Part shown: positions 6,001-12,000 of the stretch, piece by piece | How the letters are laid out: each line of letters begins with the position of its first letter | How positions within the stretch are numbered: position 1 is the first letter of the stretch | Made by a program: the position numbers | DNA from: Candidatus Aenigmatarchaeota archaeon | GTDB lineage: Archaea; Aenigmatarchaeota; Aenigmatarchaeia; CG10238-14; SpSt-28 | Direction of reading: 5' to 3' | Assembly: GCA_032249395.1 (NCBI GenBank) | Contig: JAVVFY010000001.1 | Span: 77,476 to 141,475, forward strand | Length of the DNA: 64,000 nt

Positions 6001-9000
6001 GAAACATGTTCATTTTATGTTTCTCCTCCGAATAAGCCCGGAGAATACAAGTATTATGCTTGCATAGACATGAATGGAGACAACGATTATGATGATGAAG
6101 GAGAAAGAGCAGAAGCAACTTTAATAGTTGATTCATGTATGTTTGATGTAATGACTTTTGAATTATCTCCGTCTGAAGTTTATCCTTTAGTTGATGTTAG
6201 TGCTTATATTTATTTAGTTAAATGGATAAAGTGGAACGGATATATAACTCCTTCTAAACCTAATTGTACTGGTCAAAAGGCATACATAAAGGATTATAAA
6301 GGTTGTGACGAAGGATTGACTATAGCTGAATGCACATTTGATAAAAATGAATGTTTTGCGCAATTTAGAGCACCATCTCAAGCCGGCGAATATTTGTATT
6401 ATGCTTGCTTTAAGGGTTCTTCTAAAAGCAAAATTTTAAAAGTAAAAGAGTATCCAACTCCAACCCCATCTTGCGAAGGCTCAGTCAACCTATCATTATC
6501 TCCAAATCCTTCTAAAATTTTAGAGAATATAACTGCAAACATAAGCGGATTATCAAATTGCGACTGGAAGATAGCATACGTAAAAGATTATTTGGGTTGT
6601 ACAAGCGGAGAGACAATTGCTAAATGTACTTTAGGTTCATCAGGTTGCGTAACTAATTTTACAGCTCCTTCTCAAGAAGGAGAATACGGATATTATGCCT
6701 GTATAGATAAAAATGGCGATCAAGACTTCAATGATTCTGGAGAACAAAGCAACAAAGAGGTTTTAATTGTAACGCTACCAGCAAAATATTGTAAAGACGT
6801 TAGACCAGACATATTTTTACCGACAAAAAGAGTAACTTCAGAATCTAGTTTAACAGTTTCCATATATTTCAGATGTTTTGATTGGAACGTAAGTGTCAAA
6901 GATTTGGAAATTTTGTTGAAAATAGATGATTATGAATGGGGAGAATGTTTCGTCAATAATAAAAAAATATTAAGCTATTTTGGTTGGGATGGTAGTTGCG
7001 ATGAGAAAAAAGATGGTAGTTGCGGGAAAGATGGTGTTTGGGTTTGCGATTCTACATTTACTTGCAAGCATAGAGATTATGATATATGGATATCTTCAAA
7101 TTTTTCTGATTACTTTTTCAATTTATCATTTTTGTGCAAACTACCTTACTTATCTTCCGGCTATCATACTTTAGGTGTTTATGTAAAAATTTACCACAGT
7201 GAAACTTACCTTAAAGACGGAAAGGTCGCTTTTTATGTAGAAAATAGGTGGAAGGAAAAAGTTATGGAAATTTTATATCGTCCAATAAATTTTGTTGGTA
7301 ATTTTGTTAAAATTTTTATAAAGATTTTTAATTTTTCAAGTAATAATGTCTAAGTTTTCTTGCTATTAAATTATCTAAACGAAAAGCTGTGATTAGTGTT
7401 GTTAAAGCATCATAGATTAGCTTTTTAGTATAGTTACCAACGTTTACATATTTTAAATCTATTTCATTTATACTCTTCCCCTCTATTATTCTTGCTCTTA
7501 TAGAATGCAAATAGTCAGTAACTACAACTAATTCTTTTATTCCGTATCCCCTCTCTTCAAACTTCTTTAATATGATCTCTAAGTTTTGAAGGTTTTCTCT
7601 AGTAGTTGTAGATGATTTTTCTTCCATTATTTGATATCCATGTTTTTTTAACTTTTCTACCATCATTTTTACTTTTTTATCAACTATAGTATCATATCCA
7701 CAAAAAATTATTATAGGTTTATTTCCCAAGGAACGTTCATAAATATAAAGTCTTATCGCCCCTAGAAGTCGGTTTTTTACTCTATCAAAATCGGATCCCA
7801 AAACTGCTATGATAGTTAGCATGTTCATAACTACTTTTAAGTAGTTTAAATTTAAATGTCTCTCTTAATAAAGACATCAACAAATATTTAATATTTATTG
7901 GGAGAATTTTAGAATGGTGAGAAAATGAAGTTAGAGCCTAAGCTTGAGGAAATAAGGTGGAATATAGCAAAAGAAAAGGAAATACTTGAAGAATGGGCCA
8001 AGAGAAAAGTTTATAAGTTTGAATTAAATAATAAAAAAGTCTTTTCTATAGACACGCCACCTCCCTACCCGAGACCATTTTAAATGGCGGTAATGGGAGG
8101 CCGTGGCACGTAGGTGCAGCTTCTCACTACTCTCAAATAGATATGATTGCTAGAGCAGCTCGAATGTTAGGTTTTTCTGTTTATTTTCCAATTGGTATGG
8201 ATAGGAATGGAATACCGGTAGAAAGATACGCAGAAAAGAGATTTAATATAAACATAAATTCTACTCCACGAGAAGAATTCTTAAAGTATTGTAAGATGGC
8301 TCTAGATGAACTAGAAAAAGAAATGATTGAAATAATGAAAAGACTTGGATTAAGCGGAGATTTTGATAATTATTATAGAACCGATAGCGAAGAATACAGA
8401 GCTTTAACACAAGCAACTTTTATCGAACTTTGGAATAAGGGTTTAATTTATTTTGATACTCGACCAAACAACTATTGCCCAGTTTGTAAAACAACTATCG
8501 CTGATGCTGAAGTTGTTTATGAGGAATTGCCGACCAAATTGGTTTATATTAAGTTTAGAACGACAGATAATGAAGAATTCATAGTAACAACCACAAGACC
8601 AGAACTTTTATGTGCATGCCAAGCGATTTTAGTTAATCCCGAAGATTCTAGATACAAGCATTTGGTTGGTAAAAAAGCATTAATTCCACTATATAATAGA
8701 GAGGTACCAATTTTGGCACATCCTATAGTTAAAATTGATTTTGGAAGCGGAATAGAAATGGTTTGCAGTTACGGTGATTATAATGATGTTATGCTATTTA
8801 GAGAGTTAGGTTTGAAGGAAATTGTATCAATAGATGAAGACGGAAGAATGACGGAAGCTTCAGGGAAATATGCAGGTTTAAAAGTTGAAGAGGCTAGAGA
8901 AAAAATTATTGAAGATTTAACGAATGCAGGTCTCATTGTTAAGGTAGATGAAATAATACACAGAGTACCCACTTGCGAGAGAAGCCACAACCCCATAGAA

Positions 9001-12000
9001 ATAATTCCTATGCAAGAGATTTACTTAAAGCAAATAGAATTTAAAGATAAGATGATGGAAATTGGAAAAGAATTAGAATTTTTGCCAGAATTTCATAGAC
9101 AACTTTTATTGAATTGGATAAATTCTATAACAAGGGATTGGCCTATATCTAGGAGAAGATATTATGCAACGGAAATCCCTATTTGGTATTGTAAGAAATG
9201 TGGCAAGCCGCATATTCCAAAACCAGGAAAATATTACATCCCTTGGAAAGAGAAAGCACCATTCGAGAAATGCGATAATTGCGGTTCGGGAGAATTTTAC
9301 GGAGAAACAAGAACTTTCGATACCTGGTTCGATTCTAGTATAACACCCCTATTTATCTCTAAATTTGGTAAAGACGAGCAATTCTTCAATAGAGTTTTTC
9401 CTGTAACAGTGAGACCACAAGGAAAGGATATAGTTAGGACCTGGCTATATTATACTTTACTAAGATGTTATCAATTAACTAATAAAAGGGCATTCGAAAA
9501 AGCATGGGTTAGTGGCTATTGTGTAGATGAAAAAGGAGAGAAGATGAGCAAAAGTAAAGGAAATGTTATTGATCCTGTTCCTTTAATTGAAAAGTATGGG
9601 GCCGATGCATTTAGATTTTGGAGTGCAAGCGAATCAAGCTTAGGCTTCGACTTTAGAGCCAGCGAAAAAAGAGTAGAAAATGCATATAAATTTATAACAA
9701 AGCTATGGAATATAGCGAGATACGTTTCTCAATTCCCGATAATAGAAGAATTTGATGAAACAAAACTTTTGCCTAGCGATAAATGGATTTTAAGCGAGTT
9801 AAGAATAGCATATGAGAAATGTATAGATGGCTATAAGAAGTTCAATTTTTTCATTCCTTCTAATTGTATGAGAGAGTTTCTATGGAACTTATTTGCTTCT
9901 AATTATGTAGAAATGGTTAAAAAGAGGGCCTATGGTGAAGGTTTTAGCAAAGAAGAGCAAAAAGCCGCGTGGTATACTTTACATAAAGTCATGAAAATTT
10001 CTTTAAAGCTACTCGCACCAATAATACCTTTTATAACTGAGTATATTTGGCTTAAGTTGTATAGCAAAGATAGCCTTCATACTCAAAAATTCGACGATAA
10101 GATAGAGGTGGAAGACTTTTCGAAATATACTTCCATTTTATTGGAGTTTAACTCGTTAGTGTGGAGAAAGAAAAAGGAGTTAGGCATTAGCCTAAAGGAG
10201 AGAATAAAAATTGAAATTCCCGAAGAGCTAAAGATATTTGAGAATGAACTAAGAATTATGCATAATATTGATACTTCTACTTAGTAATAACTTGTATCTA
10301 ATTTTTTAGACGATCTCATCACCACTAGTTTATATCCATTTTGTGTTATTAATAATCTTTAAATAGCACATTTTTAACTATAAAGAAGGTGATGGTATGG
10401 CTAAGAAGAAGAAAGAAGAAGAAAAGAAGGAAGAAACACAAACTGCTACCACTCAATGAACCAAAATAAAAATCTAAACCAAAATACACCTTTTTACTTT
10501 CTTTTTTAGAGATAAAATAAAAAAAGAAAGAAAAAGAAAGCTTATTTTAATTTCTTAGAATCTCAACACTCCAAAATACCACAATGCTAATACTACTAAC
10601 ACTAATACTACAACGGCCGCTACTGCCATTCCTGTTCTTGTTTGTAGGAATTCAGTTAGTGTGTCCAACATATACACACCTAAACATTTTTTGTAGGTTA
10701 AGTATAAAAAGATTACTAGAGATAATTTTTAAGCTAAAAGAATTACTTCTCTCCCATTAGTTCTTTTTCCTTTTCTCTGATTTCACTTTCTATACCCAAT
10801 TTGCTTACTATTTCTTTGAATCTGTTTCTTATTGTTACCTCTGTTATCCCCAAAGTATCCGCTATTTCTCTTTGTGTTCTTCTTTCTCCAACAAGAACGC
10901 TAGCTATGTAAATAACTGCAGCAGCAATTCCAGTAGGTCCCTTACCACTACTTATTCCCGCTTTTTTGGCTTTTTTAAGAATCTCCAACGCTTTTGCTTG
11001 TACTTTGTCGCTTAATCCTAATGTAGTGCAGAACCTTGGAATAAAGCTTGCAGGATCAGCAGGCAAAATTCTAATTCCCAACTCCCTAGCTAAATATCTA
11101 TAAGTCCTACCAACTTCCCTTTTACTTACGTTACAAACCTCTAAAATTTCTTCTAATGTCCTAGGAGAATTCATTTCTCTTGTAACCGCGTACGTTAGAG
11201 CAGCGATAACAGCTTCTATGCTTCTCCCCCTTATCAACCCTCTGTTAACTGCCTCATTATAATACTTTGCTATTTTCTCATGAATTGCTCTGGATAAACC
11301 CAAAAATGAAACTACTCTTTGTAATTCTGATAGCGCATATGATAAATTTCTATCTTTACTTCTTATTAATCTCTTATGCCACTTTAACATTCTATAGTAT
11401 TGGGTTCTTTTAGTTGGTGATACTTTATAAAGTTCTAAAACCCCTTTCCCAATCTCTGTGGTCAAACCCAAATCGTGTTTACTGAATGTTAATGGTGCAC
11501 CACCTCTTGCTCTTCTTACCATTTGATCTGTATCAAAAGCTCTCCAATCTTGAGAGGTATCTATAAGACTCTCTTCAATGACATAACCACAATTTTGGCA
11601 AACAAGTTCCCCTCTAACCGGATCTTCAATAATATTATTACTACCACACTCTGGGCAAGGTAGCCCAGCTTTTGTTTTAACTTTTGGTGATTCTATTTTC
11701 TTTTTTACCATATTTATCACTTTTAAGTGGTTTTACACTACCTTTAAAAGTTTTGTATAGAAATCTATTTAAATATTTATACTGAAAGGATAAATTTACT
11801 TCATGAAAGAATGGTTTTTATGCTTGATTGAGATAAAAGGGAATTTCTATATAAATGTTGGAATTAGGAATAAGAGAATTTTTGTTCAACCGATTTTTTA
11901 TCTTTTTATGAAAAAAGAAGACGCAAATGTTCTAAATGAACTTAAGAAAGAAGTTGGGGTGGGGGATATAGTAATAGGAAAAAATGCTTCATTTATTGTA

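Follow-up and report, generated by a model that had tools for sequence, protein, structure and literature searches.

The single valyl-tRNA synthetase (ValRS) gene of an Aenigmatarchaeota archaeon is split within the Ser codon of PPPYP-S-GRPWHVG by 20 nt, ACCATTTTAAATGGCGGTAA, located at 8074–8093 of the window (the whole 64,000-nt stretch of DNA analyzed), or 85549–85568 of the contig, as read directly from the sequence. We propose, with a probability of about 0.88, that these nucleotides constitute a relaxed bulge-helix-bulge (BHB)-type pre-mRNA intron in the ValRS coding sequence.

Upstream of the break, an ORF of 52 aa (7925–8083) terminates in PPPYPRPF, while a downstream ORF of 713 aa (8143–10284) holds the remainder of ValRS; the frame starting at 8095 with GRPWHVG is open for 729 codons. 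Deletion of the 20 nt in silico gives read-through, with the Ser codon formed by AG from exon 1 and T from exon 2 (Table 1). A genome-wide protein comparison returned one ValRS-level match, the remaining matches being paralogues at 25–34% identity. Against NCBIfam NF009687 (valine--tRNA ligase) the gene product attains 877 bits, above the equivalog cut-off, over profile positions 53–759, so that about 52 residues are absent, matching exon 1 in size. Exon 2 also matches the ValRS of 1gax with an E-value of 2.5e-98. The ORFs, the translation and the single ValRS-level match confirm the claim of the first-pass annotation that a 20-nt insert breaks the sole ValRS gene in this Ser codon; ValRS is otherwise intact and single-copy. 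The organism is a hot-spring member of the Aenigmatarchaeota (DPANN), and its genome, labelled G000 here, was assembled from a metagenome as a 25-contig draft, 89.5% complete and with 32% G+C.

Table 1. Features of the split ValRS gene and of the predicted intron, in window coordinates.
Feature	Position	Strand	Description and evidence
ValRS exon 1	7925..8073	+	From the start codon through AG of Ser; codes for MKLEPK...FSIDTPPPYP; ORF, translation and alignable N-termini of relatives
Predicted 20-nt intron ACCATTTTAAATGGCGGTAA	8074..8093	+	Same-codon homologues of 19–23 nt in 7 other sequences; unchanged in an independent DNA run; missing from RNA contig X19 record 1
ValRS exon 2	8094..10284	+	Last Ser base and GRPWHVG, the HIGH-region counterpart, through to the stop; NF009687 and 1gax matches
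Outer (exon-exon) helix h, 5' strand CCUCCC, Pro codons	8060..8065	+	Pairs with 8095–8100; fold, covariation
Outer helix h, 3' strand GGGAGG, Gly-Arg codons	8095..8100	+	Fold, covariation
Central helix H, 5' strand CCCG	8068..8071	+	Pairs CCG/CGG (3) and an outer C.U mismatch; fold
5' bulge AGA	8072..8074	+	Predicted cut AG/A between 8073 and 8074; exon-1 part of the RNA contig stops exactly at 8073
Intron hairpin h'	8075..8087	+	CCAUU 8075–8079, loop UUA 8080–8082, AAUGG 8083–8087; stop TAA 8081–8083 in the exon-1 frame
Central helix H, 3' strand CGGU	8088..8091	+	Fold
3' bulge AAU	8092..8094	+	Within a 3x4 internal loop of the minimum-energy fold; predicted cut AA/U between 8093 and 8094

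The minimum-energy fold of 8055–8105 has a free energy of -18.9 kcal/mol (z -2.66), a value equalled by 2 of 200 shuffled sequences. It matches exactly the helices described in the first-pass annotation (CCUCCC/GGGAGG, CCG/CGG, the bulge AGA, and CCAUU/AAUGG); the -28.2 kcal/mol given there is not obtained for this segment and must stem from a longer span. The 5' half of the G000 structure is canonical, with H of 3 bp, the bulge AGA and h' of 5 bp. The structure departs from the strict hBHBh' motif, which has a 4-bp helix and two 3-nt bulges, in the 3x4 internal loop around its 3' site and in a central helix of 3 pairs and a C.U mismatch. Since the 3' site is an internal loop (2x3 or 3x4) and not a clean bulge, the motif counts as relaxed, not canonical. 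It retains at least one helix-bulge-helix half, which is the BHL type accepted by broad-specificity EndA; relaxed and BHL substrates are used here as defined in PMC12397907 and PMC5829648. The homologous insert in genome G072 is nearly canonical, with a 4-bp AUCC/GGAU helix, bulges AAA and AAG, and a 6-bp h'. A loose genome-wide scan for BHB geometry, including the joining of frames, gave 247,329 geometry matches, 3,838 of them frame-joining, and is not discriminating at 32% G+C; the single gene-repairing hit stated in the first-pass annotation is not reproduced by it.

Compensatory changes keep the insert structure in evolution, and all eight copies known (listed below) share one fold. The inner helix occurs as CCAUU/AAUGG, UCAAU/AUUGA, CCAG/CUGG, CCAAAU/AUUUGG, GUCAAU/AUUGAC and CCGG/CCGG, so that pairing is kept while the sequence differs between carriers. 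In the outer helix, alignment columns 8 and 47 form U-A in five rows and G-C in two, by way of synonymous changes of Pro and Arg codons. Paired cells amount to 82.2%, against 38–55% with the partners slid, in an alignment that was fitted to the model and is hence biased toward the structure. In the same fitted alignment, the covariation score is 0.179 compared with 0.085 in shuffles, none of 500 of which reached it, and four pairs are changed on both sides.

We searched the order with a covariance model and obtained matches in 7 of 118 genomes (G000, G033, G083, G064, G115, G072 and G057, with inserts of 20, 21, 21, 23, 22, 22 and 19 nt, respectively); an eighth copy, of 21 nt, came from a metagenome pattern scan and lies on metagenome contig L058, a true ValRS carrier. 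The earlier view that the insert is restricted to one species is therefore refuted, given same-codon homologues of 19–23 nt in six other genomes at the species level and on a metagenome contig. Five of the eight inserts shift the frame; the three 21-nt inserts stay in frame but carry TAA, and in all eight the hairpin-loop stop codon sits at an identical codon offset. When a single cutting rule is applied (4-nt central helix, 3-nt bulges, cut following the second bulge base) and the exons are joined, YPSGRPWH(V/I)G results in 8 of 8 homologues, with the break falling in either of two phases within the Ser codon.

The inserts are shared among lineages whose ValRS proteins are just 62–70% identical. 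In the ValRS tree, G000 groups within its genus clade (support 100) and G033 within its own (100), and the carriers do not form one clade; this scatter argues against a single recent lesion. The distribution over the 118 genomes is patchy, mostly one or two species per genus, which requires either many precise losses or lateral spread. Of 80 further genome-contig loci examined, 77 gave an N-terminal match, and the ValRS site was free of an insert in every one of these; a class-level protein scan of 371 genomes (350 matched) gave no new short ValRS frame among the 150 matches listed. In the metagenome pattern scan, which sought near-strain alleles with and without the insert, 24 of 25 stretches were chance matches, including the sole one with a gap of 0. 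Apparent internal stops in the ValRS matches of G039, G019, G054, G040 and G073 proved to be terminal stops or nothing, not introns, and the short ValRS frames of G011, G013, G073 and G077 carry no insert at the site.

DNA contig X4 record 17, from another study, spans 7648–8697 with 0 differences and 0 gaps and contains the 20 nt unchanged. In RNA libraries, contig X19 record 1 lies on 7957–8073 and continues with 18 letters that correspond to 8094–8111 with one change. It represents a strain of about 96% identity (5 differences in 117 nt) at a depth of 2.6 and, after the exon-2 letters, runs back into 7955–7978; being so oddly built, it lends weak RNA support to the 8073–8094 joint, and its possible sources include an allele lacking the intron, carried-over DNA in the library and an artefact of cDNA synthesis. 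The statement in the first-pass annotation that RNA evidence is lacking is thus overtaken in part, by this one low-depth contig. A further RNA contig, X20 record 9, aligns from exactly 8094 to 8189, and the contig looks cyclic (96 nt and 9 letters besides, 30-nt overlap).

Introns of the BHB class abound in the organism: Aragorn calls introns in 19 of its 45 tRNAs, and its 16S gene spans 2545 nt against a 1478-position model. G000 encodes two EndA proteins, one alpha-type of 223 aa and one of 400 aa that matches the ARMAN-2 epsilon2 EndA (PDB 4fz2, E 3e-89) over nearly its full length, as well as RtcB (573 bits). An alpha-type EndA was present in all five other carriers searched. Five carriers in another family (f2) have a small alpha-type EndA only, so the ARMAN-like epsilon2 enzyme of G000 is not required. 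A second mRNA intron had been proposed in aIF5B as a conserved element; by the same rule it is real, and it has the same build and splits the P-loop. In relatives it occurs at two different P-loop sites and in only 8 of 30 loci read. One of these two sites hosts an intein-like insert in other relatives. A LAGLIDADG ORF lies 1.5 kb downstream of ValRS in G000. We found no PF00961 match near ValRS on its contig in five other carriers (four have matches elsewhere, one has none), and a homing-endonuclease link of the ValRS insert is therefore unsupported.

Based on these observations, the ValRS pre-mRNA would fold into an exon-exon helix, a short central helix with two opposite-strand 3-nt bulges, and an intron hairpin. 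EndA would cleave past the second base of each bulge, at 8073/8074 and 8093/8094, and RtcB would ligate the exons, rebuilding the Ser codon of PPPYP-S-GRPWHVG and a ValRS frame of about 780 codons. The choice of EndA, the part of RtcB as ligase and a regulatory role, if any, are points that we infer. Unspliced mRNA would yield a 52-residue peptide only, because the hairpin-loop stop codon lies in the exon-1 frame. In archaea, translation is assumed to be coupled to transcription; with the intron just 50 codons into the gene, splicing would then compete with ribosomes.

Translational recoding, in which the ribosome bypasses the 19–23 nt or shifts frame in the manner of T4 gene 60 and splicing is unneeded, is highly unlikely in our estimate. 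The stop codon that follows soon after the break, within a hairpin, in 8 of 8 copies speaks in favour of bypassing, and the gap of T4 gene 60 has a stop codon and hairpin resembling those of the insert. However, matched take-off and landing codons are missing: CCG and AGA before the gap are not repeated just before GGG AGG, no pre-gap codon recurs before the resuming codon, and among homologues the gap varies from 19 to 23 nt over two Ser-codon phases. A hop would also have no need of the conserved BHB geometry with its exon-exon and exon-intron pairing, and the 20 nt are missing from one RNA-library contig.

We consider it very improbable that, in a symbiont dependent on its host, ValRS has become a pseudogene, inactivated by an insert that is a functionless scar or a small mobile element. 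Such a reading would fit the loss of many genes in DPANN archaea and the patchy distribution of the insert, and in a genome at 89.5% completeness another ValRS copy could be unassembled; yet exon 2 keeps a 729-codon open frame with a score exceeding the equivalog cut-off, and the insert persists across the divergent ValRS lineages with compensatory changes that preserve its fold. ValRS is moreover found (E <= 1e-100) in 109 of 118 genomes of the order, while G000 has no second ValRS-level match. That the 20 nt are absent from the organism's DNA and reflect an assembly or sequencing artefact has a negligible likelihood: the draft is metagenome-assembled and in 25 contigs, but the identical DNA contig of the other study is not flagged as a possible source, and homologous yet different inserts occupy the same codon in seven other assemblies.

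The closest known system to the proposed ValRS intron is the pre-mRNA BHB intron of cbf5 (pseudouridine synthase) in Crenarchaeota (Watanabe 2002; Yoshinari 2006; Yokobori 2009, PMC2738675). It is likewise short and within coding sequence, is present or lost in a lineage-specific manner, and causes the gene to be mis-annotated as frameshifted or split. The ValRS intron differs in its gene, at the HIGH-region signature, and in its phylum (Aenigmatarchaeota, DPANN). Crenarchaeal EndA is a heterotetramer, whereas ValRS carriers have alpha-type EndA, plus the epsilon2-type in the family of G000, and cbf5 splicing has been shown experimentally in several species while ValRS splicing is predicted. 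In Haloferax volcanii, the HVO_1309 mRNA is likewise a substrate of the archaeal splicing endonuclease, and in vivo and in vitro work has confirmed its BHB intron (Schwarz et al. 2020, PMC7714728); unlike the ValRS intron, which is in coding sequence, it occupies the 5' UTR, an untranslated leader. The same paper names cbf5 as the sole other mRNA example, and the literature searched documents endonuclease-dependent introns within archaeal coding sequence for cbf5 of Crenarchaeota only. Our literature search found no description of a ValRS BHB intron.

Pre-tRNAs of ARMAN-2 and other DPANN archaea contain relaxed BHB or bulge-helix-loop introns that are cut by epsilon2-type EndA (PMC12397907 and PMC5829648) and that share with the ValRS intron one good bulge-helix half, one loosened half and an equal size range. 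In G000 the ARMAN-2 EndA has a close, full-length homologue; the f2-family carriers are without the epsilon2 enzyme. The ValRS substrate is an mRNA and would thus be recognized without the help of a tRNA body. Eukaryotic HAC1/XBP1 mRNA undergoes unconventional cytoplasmic splicing, with a cut by Ire1 and ligation by RtcB or Trl1. There, too, a small mRNA intron is taken out by a protein endonuclease at stem-loops and a tRNA ligase, the frame is changed and regulatory use is possible; Ire1 is unrelated to EndA and recognizes another motif, which makes this a separate family. RtcB in XBP-1 splicing is mentioned in the abstract of PMC8718801.

More tentatively, and rather unlikely as a whole, the inserts may represent a homologous mini-intron family, with a shared 3' end CGGUAA and a loop stop at a fixed codon offset, that sits in catalytic signature codons of essential translation genes (ValRS HIGH region, aIF5B P-loop at two sites), moves like homing elements from one Aenigmatarchaeota lineage to another through recombination at these conserved sites, and ties ValRS and aIF5B synthesis to tRNA-splicing capacity. 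If true, this would amount to a built-in checkpoint coupling tRNA maturation to translation.

The relaxed BHB-type intron proposed here would mean that an essential DPANN aminoacyl-tRNA synthetase needs splicing at its catalytic signature, as would aIF5B of the same organism, and it would bring a further phylum and further endonuclease types into archaeal pre-mRNA splicing. It offers a testable substrate of about 50 nt for EndA recognition of BHB outside tRNA or rRNA, and its patchy, non-clade distribution at one codon informs the gain and loss of such introns. Where gene callers give two fragments or no ValRS, the coding capacity of these small genomes would be underrated.

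The 20-nt insert in the Ser codon of the valyl-tRNA synthetase (ValRS) gene is, with a probability that we put at close to nine in ten, a conserved pre-mRNA intron of a relaxed bulge-helix-bulge (BHB) type, predicted to be spliced, in the part of the sole ValRS gene that codes for the HIGH region. No second ValRS-level match was found in the draft genome (752,806 bases, 25 contigs, 89.5% complete). The exon-2 frame is open for 729 codons from 8095, its translation beginning GRPWHVGAASHYSQ. NCBIfam NF009687 (877 bits, cut-off 738, profile positions 53–759) and a comparison with PDB 1gax (E 2.5e-98) identify the product of exon 2 as a valine--tRNA ligase. 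Since the profile match starts at position 53, about 52 first residues are absent from this protein, a number that agrees with the length of the small ORF. The exon-2 frame contains no ATG, GTG or TTG from the upstream stop to 8143, and an exon-2 protein started separately would therefore be without PPPYP and WHVG. These results bear out the first-pass annotation, which had described a single, split ValRS gene whose larger part lacks 52 residues. The peptide predicted across the joined exons reads ...DTPPPYPSGRPWHVGAASHYSQIDMIAR.

Features of the ValRS region, of the aIF5B and rRNA loci, and of the matching metatranscriptome contigs (positions without prefix are window positions; G000 is the genome under study, C its contigs and L single loci)
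Feature	Position	Strand	Remarks
ORF, 52 residues	7925-8083	+	ORF call; ends ...FSIDTPPPYPRPF*
20-nt insert ACCATTTTAAATGGCGGTAA	8074-8093	+	between the two ValRS ORFs
ORF, 713 residues	8143-10284	+	ORF call; remainder of ValRS
Free-standing LAGLIDADG endonuclease ORF, 176 aa	11803-12333	+	PF00961, 30 bits
tRNA-Cys gene, 30-nt intron called	12369-12472	+	Aragorn; starts 36 nt after LAGLIDADG ORF end
X19 record 1	7957-8073	n/a	metatranscriptome contig, 159 nt, depth 2.6, 5 differences; ends exactly at 8073
X20 record 9	8094-8189	n/a	RNA contig from exact first exon-2 base, plus 9 other letters and 30-nt overlap
aIF5B intron, 32 nt	L050 (G000:C9:23088-27752), about 1440-1500	n/a	between GHVDHG and KTT, P-loop
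aIF5B loci of relatives	L162, L166, L173, L177, L179, L182, L183, L163, L175	n/a	sites read
Epsilon2-type EndA, 400 aa	L047:1189-2391 = G000:C3:59932-61131	-	full-length homologue of ARMAN-2 enzyme
16S rRNA gene	G000:C13:566-3110 (L156)	-	spans 2545 nt vs 1478-position model

The minimum-energy fold of 8055–8105 (-18.9 kcal/mol, z -2.66; 2 of 200 shuffles as stable) matches the fold proposed in the earlier annotation: an outer helix CCUCCC/GGGAGG, unpaired UAC facing UAAU, a central CCG/CGG, the bulge AGA and the hairpin CCAUU-UUA-AAUGG. The G+C content of the stretch is 59%, compared with 32% genome-wide. The central helix comprises four positions, C.U followed by three pairs; the bulges are AGA on the 5' side and AAU on the 3' side, and two additional unpaired bases (UA) face the latter. 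In this fold the 5' half of the motif is canonical and the 3' half loosened, and the motif is of the relaxed or 'bulge-helix-loop' kind. Statements in PMC12397907 and PMC5829648 indicate that broad-specificity endonucleases take such substrates.

The first-pass annotation had placed the insert in this species only. We find homologous inserts at the same codon in six further genomes and in L058, a metagenome locus. A first survey, covering the ValRS site of 29 relatives, gave a sole carrier, G033 (another family; ValRS protein 63% identical), with a 21-nt insert. An order-wide protein scan of 118 genomes found ValRS at E <= 1e-100 in 109 and flagged short open frames, which on reading added the carriers G064 (23 nt), G115 (22 nt), G072 (22 nt) and G057 (19 nt); the site was free of an insert in the flagged genomes G011, G013, G073 and G077. 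A covariance model built on six insert copies matched exactly 7 of the 118 genomes, the seventh being G083 (21 nt), whose ValRS gene, located at the end of a contig, had escaped the protein scan. The eighth carrier, L058 (21 nt), came from a pattern scan of metagenomes; over the first 120 residues of exon 2 it shares 87% identity with the genome under study. Carriers thus number 1 of 19 in family f1 (the genome under study) and 6 of 70 in f2; by genus, they comprise 1 of 9 in g1 (the same genome), G033 and G083 in g15, and 1/1, 1/2, 1/4 and 1/6 in g27, g44, g33 and g11, respectively. At class level no additional short ValRS frame occurs among the 150 matches listed, and all 77 readable genome_contigs loci lack an insert there. 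In G077 (L041 = G077:C101, and L135) the ValRS frame is interrupted by a TAA some 17 codons ahead of the PPP motif (..YKFNEI*KNIFVID..), and PPPFPC takes the place of PPPYPS.

All eight inserts disable the reading frame, five by a length not divisible by three and the three 21-nt copies by a TAA. A fixed cut rule (a central helix of four positions whose three inner pairs form, bulges of 3 nt, and cleavage behind the second base of the bulge) yields YPSGRPWH(V/I)G in every copy, in line with the earlier claim that removal of the 20 nt restores the frame, and the alternative geometry-compatible candidates within the 120-nt stretches cost the protein conserved residues or leave the frame closed. 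In G072 and G057 the entire motif lies one base earlier, with a cut A|GU instead of AG|U and the same product; the central helix of G072 is a perfect AUCC/GGAU. The inner hairpin varies in sequence from lineage to lineage while its pairing is kept, with the exception of G057, where it is reduced to 2 pairs. The outer helix is CCGCCC/GGGCG in G072 and G057 as opposed to CCUCCC/GGGAG in the others, a U-A to G-C swap achieved via synonymous codons (Pro CCU to CCG, Arg AGG to CGU), and such a synonymous swap on both strands is explicable only by selection on RNA pairing. Paired cells amount to 82.2%, compared with 38–55% with slid partners, and the covariation score of 0.179 (0.085 in shuffles) was reached by 0 of 500 shuffles; both values come from an alignment of few rows (seven, related) that was fitted to the model and so favours the structure, and they were weighed jointly with the evidence by eye. 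In all eight copies the exon-1 frame runs into a stop in the hairpin loop, at the fourth codon past the Pro codon (UAA in six, UGA in two), and an unspliced message would thus cease translation at once.

The conservation of inserts that pair and restore the frame contradicts the view that the gene is a pseudogene. An assembly artefact is contradicted both by conservation across carriers and by an independent DNA contig from run X4 (another study, not flagged as a possible source), which spans 7648–8697 with no difference and no gap, so that the 20 nt are present in DNA; the runs containing the stretch are hot-spring metagenomes. Conservation and the X4 contig likewise counter the recent inactivating insertion or assembly error that had earlier been considered. 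Translational bypass, by which the insert would stay in the message, is unlikely, since matched take-off and landing codons are missing, gap length and phase vary among copies, and the conserved pairing takes in exon bases.

Splicing of the ValRS insert can also be judged from RNA, where the read evidence consists of assembled contigs, not raw reads. In X19 record 1, the 18 letters that follow 8073 are those of 8094–8111 with one change, which is the predicted exon-exon joint, and its position is unambiguous because no letters are common across the cut. The source is a strain about 96% identical, DNA may be present in RNA libraries, and the build of the contig is odd in that beyond the exon-2 letters it returns to 7955–7978 via a 5-nt identity, AGGTG. 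The RNA evidence is weakly supportive, and with this contig the earlier statement that there was none no longer fully applies. X20 record 9 resembles a cyclic contig, and the X19 and X20 contigs over the ValRS start (7955–8116 and 8094–8189) appear circularly permuted; library artefacts, cleavage intermediates and circular RNA are possible explanations.

A second, BHB-like intron lies in aIF5B, as had been proposed. It folds as (A)UGG/CCA(A) with bulges AAU and AAA and a 9-bp hairpin, and the ValRS cut rule applied to it restores GKT. Among 30 aIF5B loci read, 20 are continuous and three (G000, G005 and G028) are broken at GHVDHG|KT; a second break site, GH|VDHG, was seen in five loci, all of family f5, and an apparent intein-like insert at the P-loop in two.

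The genome under study encodes an alpha-type tRNA-splicing endonuclease (EndA; 223 aa, both Pfam domains), the RNA ligase RtcB (573 bits) and an epsilon2-type EndA, residues 31–400 of which match the ARMAN-2 epsilon2 enzyme at E 3e-89 (PDB 4fz2 and 9w2k, identified as such in PMC12397907). Endonuclease types are described there and in PMC5829648, a 2018 paper in which the epsilon2 type is known only from Micrarchaeota. Among 41 genomes searched, this one included, all 18 other f1 genomes, 2 of 3 in f3 and the single f7 genome have the epsilon2 enzyme, as against none of 8 in f2 and none of 8 in f5. Five f2 carriers searched have only an alpha-type EndA of about 200 aa, and the ValRS intron is thus independent of the epsilon2 enzyme. 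The genome is rich in BHB-class introns: 19 of 45 tRNAs are predicted by Aragorn to have an intron, and the span of the 16S rRNA gene relative to its model implies about 1 kb of inserts. Two intron-bearing Aragorn calls of 'tRNA-Stop' with anticodon UUA (G000:C5:36039-36152 and C9:29202-29327) are probably misplaced introns in non-canonical pre-tRNAs.

We analyzed the descent of the carriers in a quick maximum-likelihood tree (IQ-TREE, SH-aLRT support) of 32 ValRS proteins, leaving out G001 (too short) and G057 and G083 (partial). Carriers occupy five separate places: the genome under study within its genus clade (100), G033 within g15 (100), G064 as sister to g1 (99), and G115 and G072 elsewhere. 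This scatter suggests either an old intron with many precise losses or movement between lineages. The common 3' end of the inserts (CGGUAA or GGAUAA) and their loop argue for a single origin. The ValRS of g1 is 60–70% identical to f2 proteins and about 50% to those of other genera of its own family, and groups with f2; the comparison hints that the g1 gene, perhaps with its intron, was laterally replaced. The idea of a tie to a homing endonuclease finds no support: the LAGLIDADG ORF lies 1.5 kb downstream of ValRS in the genome under study, and no LAGLIDADG match was found near ValRS in five other carriers searched.

Full-text literature searches, covering few subscription journals and no supplements, returned no paper on a BHB intron within ValRS or within any Aenigmatarchaeota/DPANN coding sequence, and in PMC3491384 ValRS appears solely as a gene whose leader contains a tRNA half. 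Pre-mRNA splicing in archaea is confirmed for the cbf5 gene alone according to Yokobori 2009 (PMC2738675), who also link relaxed motifs to the hetero-oligomeric endonuclease; Schwarz 2020 (PMC7714728) presents a Haloferax 5'-UTR intron and refers to cbf5 as the earlier 'only one example'. The probable ValRS intron is of the same kind as the cbf5 intron, in a new gene and a new phylum.
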